From IMG/VR virus record IMGVR_UViG_3300025874_000001, positions 1 through 35,863 of that record: a stretch of 35,863 bases of DNA. The stretch is one strand, 5' to 3'. The notes under the pieces are model-generated. The model made no database searches and was not told the origin of the DNA. It saw nothing but the letters and a program-made list of their open reading frames with translations. Below, piece after piece: positions 3,092-35,863 of this stretch (position 1 is its first letter; each line of letters begins with the position of its first letter). Both the position numbers and the translations under genes were made by a program. Origin of the DNA: a virus.

Positions 3092-3367
3092 TTAGATTAG
3101 GTCCAGGGTCTCCTGAAAGATGGTCGCCCTGTCATCGTGGCTAAGTGACTCAATCGGTAGCTCACGGGGTGTCTCGCTGTCAGTCCAGTAGACTAGTTTC
3201 ACGATCTCGAACCCGTCAAGGTCGCGCTCCTCCCAAGCTTCTGTGACTTGGGACTCCCCGGCTTCGCTGCTGCTCTCGCAATGAGTTGTCACGGCCTCCG
3301 CTTCGACTGTTATGTCAAAGTATTTGTTGGGCCGTAGCTCGATGCCTTCTAGTTGTATAGTTTTCAT
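3092..3367 (-). CDS. Hypothetical acidic protein (91 aa), N-terminus MKTIQLEGIE
   Basis: ATG at 3365-3367. The first 10 codons are repeated at 4207-4235. Confidence 0.55.
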   Translation of the reverse strand: MKTIQLEGIELRPNKYFDITVEAEAVTTHCESSSEAGESQVTEAWEERDLDGFEIVKLVYWTDSETPRELPIESLSHDDRATIFQETLDLI

Positions 3368-3399
3368 TATGCGAATGTGATTTGGTTTTTATCTTTTGG

Positions 3400-4065
3400 C
3401 TACTGGCAGGTAAAGTCCGAGAGGTAGTCAGTTGACGCAATAGCCTTCTGCCGCGCCCACATTTCGAGTCCTTTGGCCTGCCAGTAGCCGCGGTTCCAGC
3501 CTGTGCCATCGCACGATTCAATGCCCATCGCCTCTAGCTCGTAGAGTTTCTCCGGCGAATTGCAGCGCAGCACGTGAACCCTAGGAAAGGCCCTTGCCCA
3601 CATCTCTACTGTCTGCCACTTCCATTCTGTCGTGCCGCCAATGGCAATAACTTCGGGACGCGGAAATAATGAGCGCACGTCGTCGCGTGTCATACCATCC
3701 TGTACGGCCACCGCCAAGGGTATGCCGCAGGACTGGATGATCGGCGCGTAGGTGCTCCACTGCTCGATGGTGGCAGCTCCGTCACCAATGACGTCGGGGA
3801 CGATGGCCCATCGCGCTTGTGTCTTTTGGGACTGCGACCAAACGAGCAAACGCCTCCACTCATCTTCTTTTTTCGCCCACTTGTCGTGGTCAAAGCAGTT
3901 AGCTCGCATATCCCAACAGCTAAACGCCCCATTATCGAGTGCGTACGGAAACCAGGGCCAAGGGCCGCGCTGCGCCCCCGGTGAAAACAAATGGCCGATG
4001 CGCCCAGTCTCACGACCAAGGCAATGCCAGAACCATCCAGTAGAGTTTGCAGGCATTACCAGCAT
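3400..4065 (-). CDS. Putative TGT-fold / DpdA-like DNA (deaza)guanine transglycosylase
   Basis: Alternating strand/loop motifs: YALDNGAFSCWD, WAIVPDVIGD, LAVAVQDG, VIAIGGTTEWK, RVHVLRCNSPEKL and ESCDGTGW. These resemble the DSGAFS ... PDv.gd ... iGG ... HlLG ... DS.DS.W pattern of phage DpdA / tRNA-guanine transglycosylase barrels as I recall them. Not verified by search. Confidence 0.4.
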   Translation of the reverse strand: MLVMPANSTGWFWHCLGRETGRIGHLFSPGAQRGPWPWFPYALDNGAFSCWDMRANCFDHDKWAKKEDEWRRLLVWSQSQKTQARWAIVPDVIGDGAATIEQWSTYAPIIQSCGIPLAVAVQDGMTRDDVRSLFPRPEVIAIGGTTEWKWQTVEMWARAFPRVHVLRCNSPEKLYELEAMGIESCDGTGWNRGYWQAKGLEMWARQKAIASTDYLSDFTCQ

Positions 4066-4235
4066 CGTATTGGCCTTTCTAAGCGACCCTCACGGATCAG
4101 TGCTAGCATTAATACTTCAGCCTCGTAAAGGGTATACATTCCCTCATCAATCATAAATGCCTCGACGTGGTCAAGCCACTCAGCGCGTGATAATCCCGGC
4201 ACAGTTTCGATGCCTTCTAGTTGTATTGTTTGCAT
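4056..4235 (-). CDS. Hypothetical protein (59 aa), N-terminus MQTIQLEGIE
   Basis: Hand-translated because it is below the track cut-off. ATG at 4233-4235 and TAA at 4056-4058. It overlaps the start of the DpdA-like gene by 10 nt. Confidence 0.45.
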   Translation of the reverse strand: MQTIQLEGIETVPGLSRAEWLDHVEAFMIDEGMYTLYEAEVLMLALIREGRLERPIRCW

Positions 4236-4236
4236 A

Positions 4237-4392
4237 TTAATCAGCGTTTAATTGTTCAAGTGTCCGGCATCCTGTCCGTACGAACAGAATATCTAGGTAA
4301 GTTTCCTCGCTGTTGCCATTGATTGACGTAACAAGGGAAATTTCCTCTTCGGTTGCTATGTTCATTTCTAGTAGTGTTTCGTATGTGTCCAT
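4237..4392 (-). CDS. Hypothetical acidic protein (51 aa)
   Basis: Hand-translated as MDTYETLLEMNIATEEEISLVTSINGNSEETYLDILFVRTGCRTLEQLNAD. It is preceded by AAGAAAGGAAAACA (SD-like) and ends 1 nt before the next start. Confidence 0.45.
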   Translation of the reverse strand: MDTYETLLEMNIATEEEISLVTSINGNSEETYLDILFVRTGCRTLEQLNAD

Positions 4393-4411
4393 TGTTTTCC
4401 TTTCTTATGTG

Positions 4412-4696
4412 TTATCTGTTTACCCAAGTTTCCCAATCACAAAGCATATCCGCCGGAGCGCATTCTGTGAATATAATAAACCTATCGAGTAGCTCCAAAG
4501 GAGCTTCCGTGTCAAGGGTTTGCTTGAACTTCAAGCGTATAGGTTTGAGCCAGCGTTCGTGAACCAGTAGCGAATTCCAATCGCAAGCGGGTAAAAGCCT
4601 TTTGAAAAGCTCCCATTCCGGCTTTGGTTCTACTAGATCATCCCAAGCTTTCAGCCTATCCTGAGAGAATGTTTTTAATGCAGTTTCTATTTTCAT
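4412..4696 (-). CDS. Hypothetical protein (94 aa)
   Basis: ATG at 4694-4696, preceded by the same 20-nt leader as the next gene (AAGAAAGGAAAAAA). Confidence 0.55.
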   Translation of the reverse strand: MKIETALKTFSQDRLKAWDDLVEPKPEWELFKRLLPACDWNSLLVHERWLKPIRLKFKQTLDTEAPLELLDRFIIFTECAPADMLCDWETWVNR

Positions 4697-5305: not shown

Positions 5306-6199
5306 TTACGCTTCGATCTGTGCAATGATTTGTTTCAATTCAGCAAGTGAGAGAATGAAGTTTTCCTTTATGCCTGCCGCTAGGTTTTCGGTTTGCTTGG
5401 CTTTTAATATGCCATATTTGCCCGCTTTATCCAAGAAGCGCAAATCAGTCGTATCCATAGAGAAGCAATCAACTAGGTTGCAAGCTTGCTCAAATTCATC
5501 GGAGCGCACCGGAAAGGCAATTGCTTGTCTGCGTGCTTGTGCTTGTTTATAGTGCTTTAAGCGCGCTTTATTTGCTTGGCTATAACTGAACGTTAAGTGA
5601 TAGTTAGGCAAAGGCACACGTTCAGGGTTTTTCGTATAATCGTAAAACTGCACCTTTGGAAAGCTTTGGTAGATCTCATAAAAGTCCAAGTCGCTTGTGC
5701 CATTCAAACGAACTGCAAACTTGTGGCCTTTCCTTTCCGCCCGTGCGCTTGCCAGTCGAATTTCGTGCTTTAACACGTCGCTTGCAATGTCTTTCCGATA
5801 TACTGTGAGCCAAGTTTTAACGATTCTAGAAACGTCAATCACGTGCTTTCCGGCCCGCTTTTCAATGAGCGAGTGCCCGCTGCCAACTAGGCAAGCCAAA
5901 CGGCAGCCAGTGCTTGCAAATGAGCAAATATCTTTGCCCGCGTTTTTACCAGCTGAAAGGTAAAGGATAAGCGTTTGAAAGTTTTCCTTTTTACCCTTTT
6001 CAACCTTCTGAGACGAATCCACAGAAGCAAAGTAGCTAATGCCTAATTCTTTAAAGAGCTTGCCCTTTGTGGTGTACGTTAACGCTTCAAAGTACTTTTC
6101 AGCTTTTAACAGAATACCAAACTTCTTTGCGGGCATTGGTTCAAGTAAATAGGCAAGTGCTAATTTCTTGATCTTTGATAGTGCTTTTTTGTTTTTCAT
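5306..6199 (-). CDS. GP88-family-like protein (297 aa), function unknown
   Basis: The combination CSFASTGCRLACLVGSG ... VRLNGTSDLDF ... VQFYDYTKNP matches my recollection of the Pfam GP88 phage family. It is the first gene of the leftward block. By eye it is more AT-rich than neighbouring genes. Confidence 0.4.
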   Translation of the reverse strand: MKNKKALSKIKKLALAYLLEPMPAKKFGILLKAEKYFEALTYTTKGKLFKELGISYFASVDSSQKVEKGKKENFQTLILYLSAGKNAGKDICSFASTGCRLACLVGSGHSLIEKRAGKHVIDVSRIVKTWLTVYRKDIASDVLKHEIRLASARAERKGHKFAVRLNGTSDLDFYEIYQSFPKVQFYDYTKNPERVPLPNYHLTFSYSQANKARLKHYKQAQARRQAIAFPVRSDEFEQACNLVDCFSMDTTDLRFLDKAGKYGILKAKQTENLAAGIKENFILSLAELKQIIAQIEA

Positions 6200-6338
6200 T
6201 TATTAAAGGCGGTTTTACAGTTCCGCGAACTGGTTATGTGTTAAGAGTGAGACGCTATCAATGCGGGTAAATAAAAGGTTGTCAAGTATATATTTCAAAT
6301 ACTTTTACCCGTCAAAGCCTACCACTATATGCAAAGCA

Positions 6339-6395
6339 ATAGCCGGGTGAATGATAGCCGGGTGAATGACGATCTTAATAATAGCCGGGTGAATG
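6339..6395. repeat. Iteron set 1: three direct copies of ATAGCCGGGTGAATG
   Basis: Exact 15-mers at 6339-6353, 6354-6368 and 6381-6395. Confidence 0.9.
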
Positions 6396-6466
6396 CATCC
6401 CATCATCCCAAAAGAAATAACAAGCTCACGCACGAAAGCGGGCCGTCAATATCCACCTGGTAACCA

Positions 6467-6536
6467 GTGAACAGCAGTGCAGTAGTGAACAGCAGTGCAG
6501 TAGTGAACGGATGGACAGTAGTGAACGTTTGAACAG
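6467..6536. repeat. Iteron set 2: 18-bp tandem repeats with core CAGTAGTGAAC
   Basis: GTGAACAGCAGTGCAGTA occurs twice, at 6467-6484 and 6485-6502. Then come GTGAACGGATGGACAGTA and a partial GTGAACGTTTGAACAG. The core repeats at 6480, 6498 and 6516, an 18-bp period. It is followed by GGGGGGGTGGGGG (6536-6548) and a TA tract (6571-6587). Confidence 0.9.
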
Positions 6537-6890: not shown

Positions 6891-7478
6891 ATGGAAGATA
6901 GAGAAATGAATGCTACTGAGAAGGAGAAGGAGGCTTTGCTGAGCGAGATCCAGCAGAGTATCCACGAGGTGGCTAATGAGAAGCGGGGTTTAAAGCTCAA
7001 GTGCTTGAGCGTCTATGATCCCGCGAAGGTAGCTAAGTTGCTTTATTTGTACAGTACGGGTAGTTCCCAGACTAGGCTGGTACGTCACTATGGTTTCGAG
7101 AGGGATACTGTTATTAGTGTACTCACGGACTACGCTGACCATATGGGTACGTTCAAGGAGTTAAGTGGTCGGATAGCGGCCAAGAACTATCTGAACCTCA
7201 GTAGCCTGGAGGAGGATTTAATTGATAAGGTACGCGACCGTCTGGAGAATGATCCGGAGATGGAGGTCGGGTTCAAGGACATCAAGGAGTTATCCATAGC
7301 TAAGTCCAATGCTTCCAGGGAGGCTATGACAGCTAGAGGAGAAGCTACGCAGATTACTGAGGACCGCAAGGTGTACACACAGGATGACTACGAGGCGACT
7401 ATAGCTGCTGCTAGGAAGAGAATCGAGCAGGCTAAGGTAGCTGATATAATAGAGATACAAGATGAAGATAACAATTAA
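6891..7478 (+). CDS. Putative terminase small subunit / HTH DNA-binding protein (195 aa)
   Basis: It is the first gene of the rightward block. It has an HTH-like segment (SSQTRLVRHYGFERDTVISVL) followed by charged helical regions, and lies 0.7 kb upstream of TerL. The assignment is positional only. Confidence 0.3.
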   Translation: MEDREMNATEKEKEALLSEIQQSIHEVANEKRGLKLKCLSVYDPAKVAKLLYLYSTGSSQTRLVRHYGFERDTVISVLTDYADHMGTFKELSGRIAAKNYLNLSSLEEDLIDKVRDRLENDPEMEVGFKDIKELSIAKSNASREAMTARGEATQITEDRKVYTQDDYEATIAAARKRIEQAKVADIIEIQDEDNN

Positions 7479-7644
7479 TAGCCACGACGAGGAGGTATCA
7501 ATTGATACTAAGCACGATGACCTTACCGCTAATCAAGTAGCTGAGCTTATGTTTCGTATTATCTTAGCTAATGGTTACCATCAACAAAACGTAGCTTACG
7601 CATTCTATGAAGTCGGTAAAGCACAGATAGAAATGGAGGAATAA
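7462..7644 (+). CDS. Hypothetical protein (60 aa)
   Basis: ATG at 7462, overlapping the upstream gene by 17 nt. Confidence 0.45.
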   Translation: MKITINSHDEEVSIDTKHDDLTANQVAELMFRIILANGYHQQNVAYAFYEVGKAQIEMEE

Positions 7645-7645
7645 T

Positions 7646-7825
7646 TTGAGCACTAAAGGAAGTAAAATGTACCACTCGGGATGGGAGAAGTTCGGAGATA
7701 TAATACAGATTTCTGATGGTTGGGTAACCGCTCGCCTAGATGGGGACAAGGGTATTGGATGCTGGGAGGTAGACGCACCGTATATTAAAATATTAGATGA
7801 AGGGGGCTGCAACGATGAGCACTAA
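7646..7825 (+). CDS. Hypothetical protein (59 aa from TTG 7646, or 52 aa from ATG 7667)
   Basis: Hand-translated as (M)STKGSKMYHSGWEKFGDIIQISDGWVTARLDGDKGIGCWEVDAPYIKILDEGGCNDEH. GGAGGA lies 5 nt upstream of the TTG. The N-terminal codons are repeated at 7815. Confidence 0.4.
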   Translation: MSTKGSKMYHSGWEKFGDIIQISDGWVTARLDGDKGIGCWEVDAPYIKILDEGGCNDEH

Positions 7826-7958
7826 AGGAAGCGGCCCCCGCAAGGGACACAATGCTGAGAAGCAGCGTAAAAACTACGATGATATTGATTGGTCAAATAA
7901 AACCAAGTCAACTAAATCAAAGCCACCTCCAACCGAACAACCCAAAGCAAGCAAATGA
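7815..7958 (+). CDS. Hypothetical basic protein (47 aa), N-terminus MSTKGS
   Basis: Hand-translated as MSTKGSGPRKGHNAEKQRKNYDDIDWSNKTKSTKSKPPPTEQPKASK. It shares an ATGA overlap with the next gene. Confidence 0.4.
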   Translation: MSTKGSGPRKGHNAEKQRKNYDDIDWSNKTKSTKSKPPPTEQPKASK

Positions 7959-30893: not shown

Positions 30894-31622
30894 CTATGGG
30901 TTCTTATAATTGATAAGTAAATCTTTTAGGTTACGCTTCTCATCCTGTAGTTCCTTACGCTGCTCAATCATACGATCAATGCGGTAGGATAGAAGCCGGG
31001 ATTCCTGCCGAATCATATCGATCTGAGTCTGGATTCTTTCGATGTTTTCTTCGGTGTCTTGCATACTCTGAACTTGTGCGGAAGCCTCCTCCTTGTCAAC
31101 AAATAACTCGGGAAAATTTAACCCTTCTAATGGATAATTTAACGCCTCGTAGCAGAAGGTATCACGGGCGATAGCGGCCTCCTTCTCGTCATCAAAGTAG
31201 CCCAGTTCGTACCGCCTCCTGCTCTTGCCTTTACCTACATCAATTGTAACGCGGCATTTTTTCTTGCCAGCTGGCCAGCGCACCCCCCGATACTTAGAAT
31301 TACCTGTTATCTTTCGTGATCCCCTAAGATTCTGAGAGTGTGTGACATACCGCAAGTTGGATGGTGCATTATTTGAACTATCTCCATTGATATGATCAAT
31401 GTCGTAGTTGTCCGGTCTAGGTCCAAGGAAGGCTCTTGCGATTAATCCGTGAACGCTAAGGACTTTCAATCCTACGCCCAAGCTCCGATACCCCTTTCCA
31501 TCATCATAGCCGAATGATCTTCCTCGACTGGAACGTCCGTGCCTCTCTACACTTCCGTCCGAGTAACAGGTTACTCTTATTCCGTTTACGCTTATATCCT
31601 TTGATGTTTCTGTAGCTATCAT
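30894..31622 (-). CDS. HNH homing endonuclease with an AP2 DNA-binding domain
   Basis: DHINGDSSNNAPSNLRYVTHSQN is an HNH motif. YRGVRW ... CRVTIDV ... YELGYFDDEKEAAIARD is AP2-like. The C-terminal tail is coiled-coil. Confidence 0.8.
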   Translation of the reverse strand: MIATETSKDISVNGIRVTCYSDGSVERHGRSSRGRSFGYDDGKGYRSLGVGLKVLSVHGLIARAFLGPRPDNYDIDHINGDSSNNAPSNLRYVTHSQNLRGSRKITGNSKYRGVRWPAGKKKCRVTIDVGKGKSRRRYELGYFDDEKEAAIARDTFCYEALNYPLEGLNFPELFVDKEEASAQVQSMQDTEENIERIQTQIDMIRQESRLLSYRIDRMIEQRKELQDEKRNLKDLLINYKNP

Positions 31623-32029
31623 AGTTCTTGTGTATTGATGGTGTGTGCGCTGCGATTGTATAGGTAACCGGTACGCTTGGTTATTATTTGTACTGCTTCA
31701 AAGTCCGTAGTCCAAGGCATCTCACGATCCTCGAACCCGAAGTCGTAGTCATCCCGAATTAGCTTAGAGATATTCCAGACATACAGAAGATGTTGGTATC
31801 CATTAACATAGATGAAATCCTTCTTTACTGATTCAGCGATACCGATATTGGTATCAAGCTTTAGCTGCTCAATAATCCAGGGATCATATGCCTTTCGGCG
31901 TACCTTGATTTCCACTAAGTAGTCAATGCTCTCGTAATCAAAAGGACTGAACTGGTCCTCGGCCTTTATCAGCTTATTCATCTTAGGAAAAGCCAACATT
32001 ATATTTTGTGCTACTTGTTCTTCTGTCAT
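31619..32029 (-). CDS. PD-(D/E)XK-like nuclease-fold protein (136 aa)
   Basis: SPFDYESIDYLVEIKVRRK gives D-x9-E-x-K. It overlaps both neighbours by 1-4 nt. Confidence 0.3.
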   Translation of the reverse strand: MTEEQVAQNIMLAFPKMNKLIKAEDQFSPFDYESIDYLVEIKVRRKAYDPWIIEQLKLDTNIGIAESVKKDFIYVNGYQHLLYVWNISKLIRDDYDFGFEDREMPWTTDFEAVQIITKRTGYLYNRSAHTINTQEL

Positions 32030-33363
32030 TATCCGAACCTCCCTGTGCAGTGATAGAATTTAAACGTACCTCCGATGTCGCGCTCACCTTCACGGTTCTT
32101 AGCTATCTCGTAGGTTAGACTGGTATAACCCCCACGGGCATCTTGACTCTTTGACGAATCAACATCTCCGTTTGATGGGTACATAAGCAGAACAACGTCG
32201 GCATCATTCTCGATGTCCCCGGAATCCTTTAGGTCATACAGTTTGAGTCGGCCATTCTTGGCTCCCTCTCGGTTGACCTGTGCTAGTAGGATAATGGCGA
32301 TATTGAGATCAATAGCCATCTGCTTAATTTTGTGAGAGATACTGGCGATGCCCTCGGCCTTACCCATCTTGGAAGAAAAAGGTATAAGCTGTAAGTAATC
32401 AATGACCAGTAGCTTTACTCCGTGCTTGTTGACGAACTGTCGTGTCTGGCTGTATAGATCATCGGCACTCTTGACTGAGTGCGAGGTGTACACAGGCATT
32501 GTCTTGAGATTAGAGATAGTCTCGTGAACTCGCTTGACCTGTTCCGGCTGGGCTACGTTGTCCTCCACGCTGCGTAGGTTAACGCCGGAGATAACTTGCG
32601 TCAGTCGCTTAGTAAGCTGCTTCTGTGGCATCTCCAAGGAGAAGACTCCACAAGCGTGACCATCCTTTGCTACAGCCTGGGATACAATATACAGGGCCAG
32701 TGCTGACTTACCACAGGAGGTAGGTGCAGCTACAGTCATTACTTCACCAGCGGCTATGCCCCGATTGCCAAGCTCACTATCCAAGTTATTGGTATGCGTC
32801 TTAACAACGTCAGGTACGTAGTCCCCTGCCTGCATCCTAGCGATGTCCTCCAGTAGCTCGTCAGCGGACGAACCGATCCCGGTTTTATCTTGGCTGAATA
32901 AAGGACGTGCAGTAATCTCGGACTCAAGGGTGCTACGAATCTCGTCATAGCTAAGAGCCTCGGACTCGACATTCTCGACAGCAATCCGGCAGGACCGCAT
33001 AATCTCACGGAGCCTAGCCTTCTCTGCTACGATGTTAGCATAGAACTTAGCCGTAAGCTCGCTGTAAACGCCGTCAGCTACCGATAGGATACCTGCTATG
33101 CCACCGACATCGTCAAGCCCTCTAAGGGACTTCAGATGCTCTGCAATGGACACCTCGTCAATAGGCTTACTCAGTTGAGCAAGGTCACCTATAGCTTGGA
33201 ACAGTAATCTAAATCGTAGTACGTAAAAATCCTCGGCCTCCAGTAAAGGACGCACCATATCATATACGGATGCGTCACCTGGGAATAGGCAGGATGCTAT
33301 TAATTTTCTTTCAGCCTCGGCACTATGTGGCTGGTTCGTCGTCAGTAGGTTTATTTCGTTCAT
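32029..33363 (-). CDS. dnaB: DnaB-type replicative DNA helicase
   Basis: N-terminal AEAERKLIASCLF, Walker A APTSCGKSALALYI, Walker B LLVIDYLQL, and an arginine-finger region AQVNREG. The track start at 33369 is TTG; the first ATG is 33363. Confidence 0.9.
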   Translation of the reverse strand: MNEINLLTTNQPHSAEAERKLIASCLFPGDASVYDMVRPLLEAEDFYVLRFRLLFQAIGDLAQLSKPIDEVSIAEHLKSLRGLDDVGGIAGILSVADGVYSELTAKFYANIVAEKARLREIMRSCRIAVENVESEALSYDEIRSTLESEITARPLFSQDKTGIGSSADELLEDIARMQAGDYVPDVVKTHTNNLDSELGNRGIAAGEVMTVAAPTSCGKSALALYIVSQAVAKDGHACGVFSLEMPQKQLTKRLTQVISGVNLRSVEDNVAQPEQVKRVHETISNLKTMPVYTSHSVKSADDLYSQTRQFVNKHGVKLLVIDYLQLIPFSSKMGKAEGIASISHKIKQMAIDLNIAIILLAQVNREGAKNGRLKLYDLKDSGDIENDADVVLLMYPSNGDVDSSKSQDARGGYTSLTYEIAKNREGERDIGGTFKFYHCTGRFG

Positions 33364-33535
33364 TATCAAGTAATTCTACCAGAGAACGAAGGACTTGTCC
33401 AAGGGACTTATGGGCTACACGATTTAACTCTGGCATATGATAACAATCAATTGTGTTATAGATGGAGAGTGATACTTCGGCGGCTTCTTTTATTTTAGTC
33501 ATTTCGTTGCGGTCTATTTTATTATGTTGGGTCAT
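33323..33535 (-). CDS. Hypothetical protein (70 aa)
   Basis: ATG at 33533-33535. It overlaps the dnaB start. Confidence 0.45.
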   Translation of the reverse strand: MTQHNKIDRNEMTKIKEAAEVSLSIYNTIDCYHMPELNRVAHKSLGQVLRSLVELLDNERNKPTDDEPAT

Positions 33536-33590: not shown

Positions 33591-33926
33591 TTACTCCGAC
33601 TCTGCTCTTTCGAGCATCCCTATGGCTATCAACGAGTAGCCAATTAGGTCGCGGAATATGTCCTTGGATTGGTCGCCATTAGTAACTACTTTTAGCTGAC
33701 CATCGTTACAGAAAGCCTTCGCTCTCTGGAATTTGTCCTGCATCCGAATGCATACACCTGTTAAGGGATGAACACCGAACTCGGAGGAGCCGTCAAAGTT
33801 TGCGAAGGGGTTATCGCAGCTTTCGCCTCCTGTGTAATCCGAGCATTTGTGAGCGGTTAGTTCCAAAATGGAACTGACCTCGTCACGCCGGAATGTTTCC
33901 CACCAGATCTTATCGAATGAGGACAT
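33591..33926 (-). CDS. DUF1599-like (all-alpha, MazG-related; nucleotide-modification-associated) protein
   Basis: HKCSDYTGG ... GVCIRMQDKFQRAKAF ... SKDIFRDLIGYSLIAIGMLE matches the K..DYG ... R..DK..R ... D...DL.nY pattern I recall for DUF1599. Confidence 0.45.
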   Translation of the reverse strand: MSSFDKIWWETFRRDEVSSILELTAHKCSDYTGGESCDNPFANFDGSSEFGVHPLTGVCIRMQDKFQRAKAFCNDGQLKVVTNGDQSKDIFRDLIGYSLIAIGMLERAESE

Positions 33927-35662: not shown

Positions 35663-35863
35663 TATTACTCTCCGTTAAGGATGAAAAAGGACGCAGACTT
35701 GCGGATGATCTTGATGGCTTCAGTAGGGGAGATGCAGTAGTCCCGAATCATATCGTCAACCTCAATGCAGAGGGAAGCTAGAGTGAAGAAGTCGAGATGC
35801 CGATCGGATTTAACGTGCGTGATGGTGACGCAGGGATGGTCTTGACCAAATGTTGGCTCCTCG
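35663..35863. repeat. Terminal overlap, copy B (duplicate of 1-201, containing a truncated second copy of CDS 3-239)
   Basis: Base-for-base identity with 1-201. The minus-strand ORF here is cut by the window edge. Confidence 0.95.

Follow-up and report, generated by a model that had tools for sequence, protein, structure and literature searches.

A compact DpdA-like protein of the transglycosylase superfamily in a complete marine phage genome without preQ0 genes

The viral record IMGVR_UViG_3300025874_000001 (IMG/VR), which was analyzed over its whole length of 35,863 nucleotides and is referred to here as the window, contains a marine phage genome with an open reading frame (ORF) for a 221-amino-acid protein on the minus strand at positions 3400 to 4065. 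The ORF begins with ATG and ends at an in-frame TAG. Its PHROG match, AlphaFold2 model, Foldseek and hhalign comparisons, and invariant residues make it very likely that the protein falls in a subfamily of the tRNA-guanine transglycosylase (TGT) superfamily that is compact and DpdA-like. DpdA is treated as the signature gene of viral 7-deazaguanine DNA modification (Hutinet 2023). The interpretation that we somewhat favor over all others together is that the protein is a compact TGT/DpdA base-exchange enzyme from a family that acts like DpdA, and that the orphan copy in the window is probably weakened or disabled.

Of the lines of evidence on function, gene neighborhood is the strongest. In a scan of IMG/VR, relatives were encoded at 345 loci, of which the best 80 were analyzed with their flanks. 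Clustering of the neighboring ORFs identified no universal partner (DnaB was present in 27 loci and terminase in 20), and three of the neighbor clusters were QueE, QueD, and QueC. Dedicated hidden Markov models (HMMs) located preQ0-pathway genes in 20 of the 80 loci, and in all 20 the nearest such gene abuts or overlaps the family gene. For example, five loci with members 57 to 60% identical to the window protein (L034, L043, L044, L048, and L059) have a tight operon in which the family gene is followed by QueC, QueD, QueE, and FolE2, except that QueE was not detected in L059. Pfam matches support these operon genes (QueC, 9e-69; PTPS, 1e-24; Radical_SAM; GCHY-1, 8e-95). More distant Que-linked loci, including those of T7-like phages, combine the family gene with QueD, QueE, and QueC in other orders. 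There was no match to DpdA1 in the Que-linked loci, and neither TGT nor DUF6610 was among the 25 listed of the 50 Pfam families matching 90 proteins that neighbor the Que-linked copies. Bacterial genomes and metagenome-assembled genomes also had Que genes adjacent to the family gene, in 4 of 17 loci, including a Verrucomicrobiales contig encoding a protein 63% identical to that of the window; the closest bacterial-genome copies are from Verrucomicrobia. Because Que genes adjoin the family gene, we regard its members as true DpdA-type enzymes that act in the modification of DNA with 7-deazaguanine, and we consider it quite probable that the Que-linked members insert a 7-deazaguanine base into phage DNA. 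Genomic coupling to preQ0/CDG genes was found for the family but not for the window.

Two other features of these neighborhoods were observed. At loci L072, L076, L080 to L083, L112, and L113 the sole Que-type gene beside the family gene encodes a QueD-like T-fold protein, which could be a CDG decarboxylase of the DpdL type (Hutinet 2023) rather than QueD. Within a set of Que-linked loci (L044, L066, L070, L071, L075, L084, and L086), two proteins match dGTP_diPhyd_N (PF18909), the N-terminal domain of MazZ-like dATP/dGTP diphosphohydrolases.

The AlphaFold2 model of the 221-amino-acid protein, for which 43 homologs were the input, had a pLDDT of 91.1 and a pTM of 0.88 and comprised eight beta/alpha units, i.e., a (beta/alpha)8 barrel. 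The first 27 Foldseek matches in the PDB were all bacterial TGTs (E values of 2e-5 to 2e-4; query TM-scores of 0.50 to 0.58), and human QTRT1, archaeosine TGT, and the TGT-like Cap10 were found lower in the list. Among the BFVD viral models, the best named matches were phage 'queuine tRNA-ribosyltransferases', i.e., proteins of the DpdA type. An earlier reading of the window from its sequence only had proposed a TGT-fold protein of the DpdA type and had suggested this structural comparison. Its proposal is borne out by the top matches to TGTs (E value of 2e-5) and phage DpdA-type proteins, by profile comparison, and chiefly by the gene neighborhood.

The same sequence-only reading listed six motifs, all of which are present in the minus-strand translation of positions 3400 to 4065: LDNGAFS (residues 43 to 49), VPDVIGD (89 to 95), AVQDG (120 to 124), IGGT (142 to 145), HVLRCN (164 to 169), and SCDGTGW (184 to 190). 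In alignment A2, a set of 59 diverse family representatives that are 31 to 64% identical to the window protein, residues D44, D91, T99, Q122, G143, G144, H164, S184, and D186 are invariant. This family-wide invariance indicates that the motifs are not due to chance. D44 is the predicted general acid/base, D186, within SCDGTGW, is the predicted nucleophile, and D91 and Q122 are predicted to recognize the base. By motif position, D44, D91, and D186 are equivalent to Asp95 (general acid/base), Asp130 (base recognition), and Asp256 (nucleophile) of bacterial DpdA, which are invariant across TGTs and DpdAs, and alanine in place of the acid/base or nucleophile aspartate of bacterial DpdA kills guanine exchange (PMC10164549). 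F48, four residues past D44, is the counterpart of the base-stacking Phe99 of bacterial DpdA. The window protein retains an intact catalytic barrel, with all nine of the family-invariant residues kept. The protein ends about 35 residues past the predicted nucleophile. Neither a CxCxxC...H motif nor any conserved Cys or His beyond D186 was found in alignments A1 and A2, and with no Cys/His cluster past the nucleophile, the protein lacks the structural Zn site that TGT and bacterial DpdA have.

Among the closest known counterparts is DpdA1, the type that inserts preQ0 in Escherichia phages CAjan and 9g and in Seuratvirus phiG7 (gp16). DpdA1 and the compact family are alike in having no Pfam TGT match, and they have in common a TIM barrel and the motif order LDxGAF, xDxxGD, xGG, SCDxxxW. 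In a one-to-one hhalign test, the A2 family profile aligned with A3, a profile of validated-type DpdA1 from Seuratvirus, with an E value of 2-3e-4. The motif register, which was read at a relaxed alignment threshold, paired LDNGAF of the compact family with LDSGAF of DpdA1, VPDVxGD with VLDGIGD, AVQDG with CFHxGE, IGG with LGG, and ESCDGTGW with YSCDSSSW. D63, D105, and D206, which are invariant in DpdA1, align with D44, D91, and D186, and H132 of DpdA1 aligns with Q122 of the window protein. When the family profile was compared with single sequences by hhalign, E. coli TGT gave nothing useful and phiG7 DpdA a weak match, so that a profile of DpdA1 was required. DpdA1 has 306 amino acids, whereas the compact family has about 205 to 240 and lacks a C-terminal extension of about 90 residues. 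Furthermore, neither HMM recognizes the members of the other group. For example, the DpdA1 HMM (A3) matched gp87 of Arthrobacter phage Sonali with an E value of 5e-23 but gave only 1.3 for Sonali gp81 and 0.87 for Phegasus gp54.

Both types can be present in the same phage. Sonali (L088) encodes a compact-family protein (gp81, positions 4054 to 4671; 1e-38) and a DpdA1 (gp87, positions 7041 to 7931) that is beside QueC, QueD, QueE, and GTP cyclohydrolase genes. Coliphage phiG7 (L002) has DpdA1 at positions 3602 to 4522 together with a compact copy at positions 5938 to 6530 that, as in SHIN8, is split into two ORFs. The coexistence of DpdA1 and a compact copy in Sonali and phiG7 suggests paralog specialization or decay.

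Sequence comparisons indicate that the compact family is distinct from DpdA2 and DpdA4 as well, and probably from DpdA3. DpdA2 (KVP40 NP_899370, 459 amino acids; nt-1 YP_008125322) is not similar (hhalign E value of 0.31 against the family profile), and no Schizotequatrovirus was among the tblastn matches. DpdA3 (Cellulophaga phage phiST gp042, which is CGPG_00065; Campylobacter phage CP220) is also a short (259 amino acids), divergent TGT-like protein located beside Que genes, and by eye it has a similar motif order (LDNGA, PxD, CPQG, HFLGxG, S(S/T)DSC). The bases that DpdA3 is believed to insert are CDG, DG, or ADG, with all guanines being replaced. Comparison with a 3-sequence DpdA3 alignment gave an hhalign E value of 0.008 over 44 columns with a probability of 5%, and the HMM gave an E value of 0.37. 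The compact family and DpdA3 are probably sister subfamilies rather than one. DpdA4 (DUF6610, PF20314) had no match in the 59 compact-family members at E values up to 1. The neighbors of QueE and FolE in Phage NCTB, considered as possible DpdA2 genes, and phiST gp065/gp066, considered as possible DpdA3 genes, gave no match. Bacterial TGT and bacterial DpdA (PF01702, NF041059) provide the best structural match and have in common with the compact family the predicted double-displacement chemistry with three aspartates. They differ in that the compact family, at about half the size, has no N-terminal lid, insertions, or structural Zn site.

Some members of the compact family have already been given a name. 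The actinophage proteins that SEA-PHAGES labels 'DpdA-like tRNA-guanine transglycosylase' (Fishburnevirus gp54, Sonali gp81, and Aoka gp40; about 205 amino acids) belong to the same family, with A2 HMM E values of 1e-41 for Fishburnevirus gp54 and 1e-38 for Sonali gp81 and tblastn identities of 31 to 36%. This label comes from annotation alone, and the host is reported to lack preQ0 synthesis. None of the checked cultured phages carrying the compact family is listed in the supplement of the 2019 census (PMC6884629), and we found no paper that names a further DpdA subfamily. In PHROGs the window protein matched phrog_15826 ('unknown function'; E value of 1.3e-27), followed by a weak match to phrog_887 ('queuine tRNA-ribosyltransferase'; E value of 0.0015). 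The family is large, with matches from 2,268 clusters at 90% identity and from 1,547 representatives at 50% identity, 344 of the latter below 1e-10. The sequence-only reading considered 221 amino acids short for a DpdA, as is indeed the case when the protein is compared with DpdA1, DpdA3, and DpdA2 or with the 406 positions of the NCBIfam bacterial DpdA model. However, family members are nearly always about 205 to 240 amino acids long, and the short length is thus the family norm.

The window has 35,662 unique bp with a G+C content of 46%, and its first 201 bases are an exact copy of positions 35663 to 35863. Whether this terminal direct repeat is an overlap from circular assembly or genuine terminal redundancy, the genome is complete, and the absence of preQ0 genes and the orphan status of the DpdA-like gene therefore hold genome-wide. 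No FolE, QueD, QueE, or QueC family member was found when 31 ORFs of the window were scanned against Pfam or PHROGs. These are all of the gene-like ORFs of at least 90 amino acids except three small unassigned ones, which were covered by a six-frame scan of the window. That scan yielded nothing with HMMs for phage QueC, QueD, QueE, and FolE2 or in a phmmer search with phiG7 FolE. Thus, the earlier statement that the genome has no preQ0-pathway gene is confirmed, and any 7-deazaguanine substrate would have to be supplied by the host. The composition is not new, as orphan (singleton) DpdA genes had already been described (PMC6884629).

The singleton DpdA phages in that study indicate what might be expected. 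Mycobacterium phage Orion, whose host lacks the pathway, does not have any 7-deazaguanine (Hutinet et al. 2019, PMC6884629), and Salmonella phage 7-11 has about 0.02% dADG (PMC6884629). The set-up in both is that of the window phage, a DpdA-type gene without a phage preQ0 pathway, but their proteins are DpdA1-like. When the DpdA of phage 9g was present alone in E. coli, host-made preQ0 was inserted into plasmid DNA as dPreQ0, replacing about 0.3% of G (PMC6884629). Therefore, the proposal in the sequence-only reading that the enzyme uses a host-made base has precedent, with a low expected yield. Orphan status is common among relatives. Of the 21 loci flanked by 5 kb or more on each side, 14 had no Que gene, and none was found in the 12.5-kb stretch examined around Fishburnevirus gp54. 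The gene for the closest homolog, which is 81% identical, is in a PrimPol/DEAD-helicase replication module with no Que genes.

It had also been suggested that the DpdA-like gene forms a two-gene modification module with a gene for a DUF1599-like protein (positions 33591 to 33926, minus strand; 111 amino acids). The synteny of sister phages does not support this suggestion. The order endonuclease VII, Erf, SSB, DUF1599-like protein, DnaB is kept at four sister-phage loci (L096 to L099; contigs of 16 to 36 kb, one from Tara Oceans) that have the genome architecture of the window, and none of the four has a DpdA-like gene within 10 kb on either side of the replication block. Furthermore, a DUF1599-like homolog is present in just 2 of the 80 DpdA-like loci. 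These results indicate that the DUF1599-like gene belongs to the replication module, and they do not link it to the DpdA-like gene. In the sister phages the variable early region encodes instead a C5 cytosine DNA methylase (PF00145) together with a His-rich protein of 204 amino acids, which suggests alternative anti-restriction cargo.

The match of the 111-amino-acid protein to PF07659 (Nucleotide modification associated domain 1) is below the Pfam threshold (E value of 0.036; 14.8 bits versus a cut-off of 25), and 45 of 46 close homologs give the same subthreshold match (best E value of 3e-4), but these homologs are 67 to 95% identical and hence not independent. The protein matches PHROG 1485 with an E value of 1.3e-7. 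Its AlphaFold2 model has four helices (pLDDT of 71.5) and no significant match in a PDB fold search, in which the sole suggestive match was to the MazG-like YpjD (E value of 2.6). The 199 relatives that could be detected are all close, with identities of 70 to 95% among the 120 listed, and were found in metagenome assemblies, including several of Tara Oceans, in many cases on contigs of approximately 36 kb.

The TAG that ends the DpdA-like ORF (positions 3400 to 3402) is followed in frame by 10 further codons and an ancestral TAA (positions 3367 to 3369, minus strand), as seen from read-through translation, the DNA, and codon comparison. Reading past the TAG gives PKDKNQITFA and then the TAA, and this stop and the ATG of the following gene overlap (TAATG). 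The reading frame in the window thus runs FTCQ(stop)PKDKNQITFA(stop), compared with YTCKKPKDKNQITFA in the closest homolog (L003/P0001), the C terminus of which reads CKKPKDKNQITFA. The window has CAG TAG where this homolog has AAA AAA, and the 10 codons past the TAG agree with it at every residue. The stop costs the protein its last 11 codons, including a conserved Q-x-x-F-A tail. A tail of this type, Q-x-x-[hydrophobic]-A, written Q-x-x-[F/L/W]-A, is present in 113 of 120 close homologs (P0001 to P0120), and the members in the five Que operons described above end QQITFA. Some distant members end QLSLF or QLELEL, and many have no tail. Recoding of TAG was considered and rejected, because the genome has no tRNA gene and uses TAG as an ordinary stop, at the end of 8 of the 54 ORFs, the portal gene among them. 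The sequence is most simply read as showing a nonsense mutation of recent origin, a variant within the population, or an error of assembly. Because the stop removes a conserved tail, it lowers the odds that this copy is fully functional.

C-terminal peptides of the QL[SD]LF type are beta-sliding-clamp-binding motifs. The lost tail resembles such a motif, and by this analogy the clade may be tethered to the clamp. Tethering of this kind would fit with a DNA substrate and with action near replication.

In the mechanism that we favor, D186 would displace guanine from double-stranded DNA to give a covalent intermediate between enzyme and DNA, with D44 acting as the general acid/base, and a free 7-deazaguanine base (preQ0 or a relative) would be installed, shielding the phage DNA from restriction. 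The orphan copy would obtain its substrate, preQ0 or preQ1, from the host queuosine pathway, and modification would be at most partial and motif limited. The window enzyme is probably weakened or newly disabled, and the possibility that this orphan, truncated copy modifies the DNA of the window phage with host preQ0 or preQ1 falls somewhat short of an even chance. A more tentative proposal, which we consider rather unlikely to hold as a whole, is that the compact family constitutes a fifth, still unnamed subfamily of phage DpdA, consisting of a minimal, roughly 220-amino-acid barrel without the Zn subdomain. The clade of the window would be tethered to the replisome through the clamp-like tail, with insertion coupled to replication; orphans, both the window copy and those of mycobacteriophages with a host that makes no preQ0, would use a host-derived or different base; and the copy with the TAG would be a natural tail-less variant.

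It is improbable, in our estimation, that the gene is simply a decaying remnant. According to this explanation an ancestor had the gene with a Que operon, or relied on one, and the lineage kept the transglycosylase alone, which is now nonsense mutated, leaving the DNA unmodified. An in-frame TAG with the conserved tail intact behind it is what such decay might look like. However, the codons after the stop agree completely with the closest homolog, which means that the TAG is of very recent origin, a polymorphism, or an artifact of sequencing or assembly. Moreover, of about 232 codons, 221 are undisturbed, including those for the nine family-invariant residues. Loss of the tail need not be fatal because many distant members do without one, and the barrel may therefore work in its absence. 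The completeness of a genome without pathway genes, the sister phages that have a C5 methylase in the stead of the gene, and the split copies of phiG7 and SHIN8 are all consistent with decay.

Several additional observations weigh against the favored interpretation of a compact, DpdA-like base-exchange enzyme. The function of the family is predicted from fold, sequence, and neighborhood, and the premature TAG may mean that the gene is decaying. Supply of preQ0 by the host of the window phage is an assumption. The family is conserved in Fishburnevirus mycobacteriophages, whose host is reported to lack the preQ0 pathway (PMC6884629), and the orphan members may do something else. In Sonali and phiG7 the compact member need not be the main inserting enzyme. 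The homology to TGT and DpdA is remote. The window protein matched nothing in Pfam or NCBIfam, neither it nor any of the 59 members matched PF01702 (TGT) or NF041059 (DpdA), and sequence searches of the PDB with profiles A1 and A2 returned nothing or chance matches alone. However, a validated DpdA1 also fails these curated models, with no precomputed Pfam domain and only 17 bits for NF041059 versus a cut-off of 200, and the curated-model test thus discriminates poorly. In addition, the structure of a generic TIM barrel, ribulose-phosphate epimerase (1rpx), was matched by Foldseek with an E value of 2e-4, the same order as the TGT matches, and the fold by itself is therefore not decisive. Finally, the base-recognition position is Gln122, as in bacterial TGT, where bacterial DpdA and DpdA1 have His.

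If orphan members do something else, they might have a function that is independent of preQ0, such as the exchange or excision of another DNA base, or an action on the tRNA or DNA of the host as a factor in takeover or counter-defense. We regard this as unlikely for the window protein, on a par with decay. The persistence of the family in mycobacteriophages of a host reported to lack preQ0 synthesis would be explained, functional divergence of singleton DpdAs has been raised previously (Hutinet 2019, PMC6884629), and both the second paralog beside DpdA1 in Sonali and the two-thirds of well-flanked loci without a Que gene (14 of 21) are in accord with it. However, orthologs that are 57 to 63% identical are located in Que operons as the sole TGT-like gene detected, the residues for recognition of guanine or 7-deazaguanine are the same in Que-linked and orphan members, and there is no tRNA-binding or Zn subdomain. 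That the protein is a generic TIM-barrel enzyme with convergent motifs, as the failure of the curated models and the epimerase match (E value of 2e-4) might suggest, is highly improbable given that six motifs, spread over strands beta3 to beta8, align in register with those of DpdA1, that the 27 top structural matches are all TGTs, and, above all, that in 20 of 80 viral loci a Que gene directly adjoins the family gene, an arrangement that largely refutes it.

One further candidate for the family, aGPT-Pplase3 (PF18746), was weakly matched by 2 of the 59 members, with E values of about 0.1. It was rejected because the fold of those enzymes is of the helix-hairpin-helix, glycosylase-like type and not a TIM barrel (PMC8989533). 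The window also has neither a 5-hydroxymethyldeoxyuridine (5-hmdU) kinase nor a hydroxymethylase.

The DpdA-like gene is located within a minus-strand run of small early genes. The first 10 nt of the DpdA-like gene are shared with a 59-amino-acid ORF (positions 4056 to 4235, minus strand), and homologs of this ORF are upstream of the family gene at five other loci (L003 to L005, L007, and L058), directly so in L003 to L005. This ORF and another small flanking ORF (positions 3092 to 3367, minus strand) have a common N terminus (MQTIQLEGIE and MKTIQLEGIE, respectively). The early and replication block encodes a PD-(D/E)XK exonuclease, a GP88-family protein (PF17338), an HNH endonuclease, DnaB, SSB, Erf, and endonuclease VII, and elsewhere the window encodes terminase, a major head protein, lysozyme, and tail-fiber-like proteins. 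No tRNA genes were found in the window. The phage collection contained no nucleotide match to the window, and the nearest relative of the capsid protein, at 62% identity, is from 'Phage C75C1', which has no listed host.

The GP88-family protein (positions 5306 to 6199, minus strand; 297 amino acids) matches PF17338 with an E value of 1.3e-25 and phrog_1617 ('unknown function') and has a C-x7-C-x3-C motif. Its homologs are within a few kilobases of the DpdA-like gene in 4 of the 80 loci (L013, L014, L040, and L042). The possibility that it is a hidden QueE-like radical-SAM enzyme was rejected because its Pfam match is PF17338 instead, with no Radical_SAM, PDB, NCBIfam, or QueE-HMM match. The HNH endonuclease (positions 30894 to 31622, minus strand; PF13392, E value of 2.4e-15, with a weak match to an AP2 domain) is likely a homing endonuclease. 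Its gene is two genes downstream of that for DnaB (positions 32029 to 33369), with a 136-amino-acid ORF (positions 31619 to 32029) between them.

For the window phage itself the practical consequence is modest, as its DNA may carry little or no modification. The orphan DpdA configuration was already known. What is modestly new is the family, which is uncurated, distinct from DpdA1, DpdA2, and DpdA4 and probably from DpdA3, very widespread, and minimal, with a tail resembling a clamp-binding motif. Approximately 1,500 clusters at 50% identity are missed by Pfam and NCBIfam and unlabeled in PHROGs, and with the checked cultured carriers outside the 2019 census, surveys of DNA modification in phages probably undercount the family. 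The many orphan copies sharpen the question of what role a singleton DpdA has where neither phage nor host makes preQ0. Among the TGT-fold enzymes compared, the compact protein is the smallest whose active site appears to be complete, and it is therefore an appealing minimal scaffold on which DNA base exchange could be studied or engineered.

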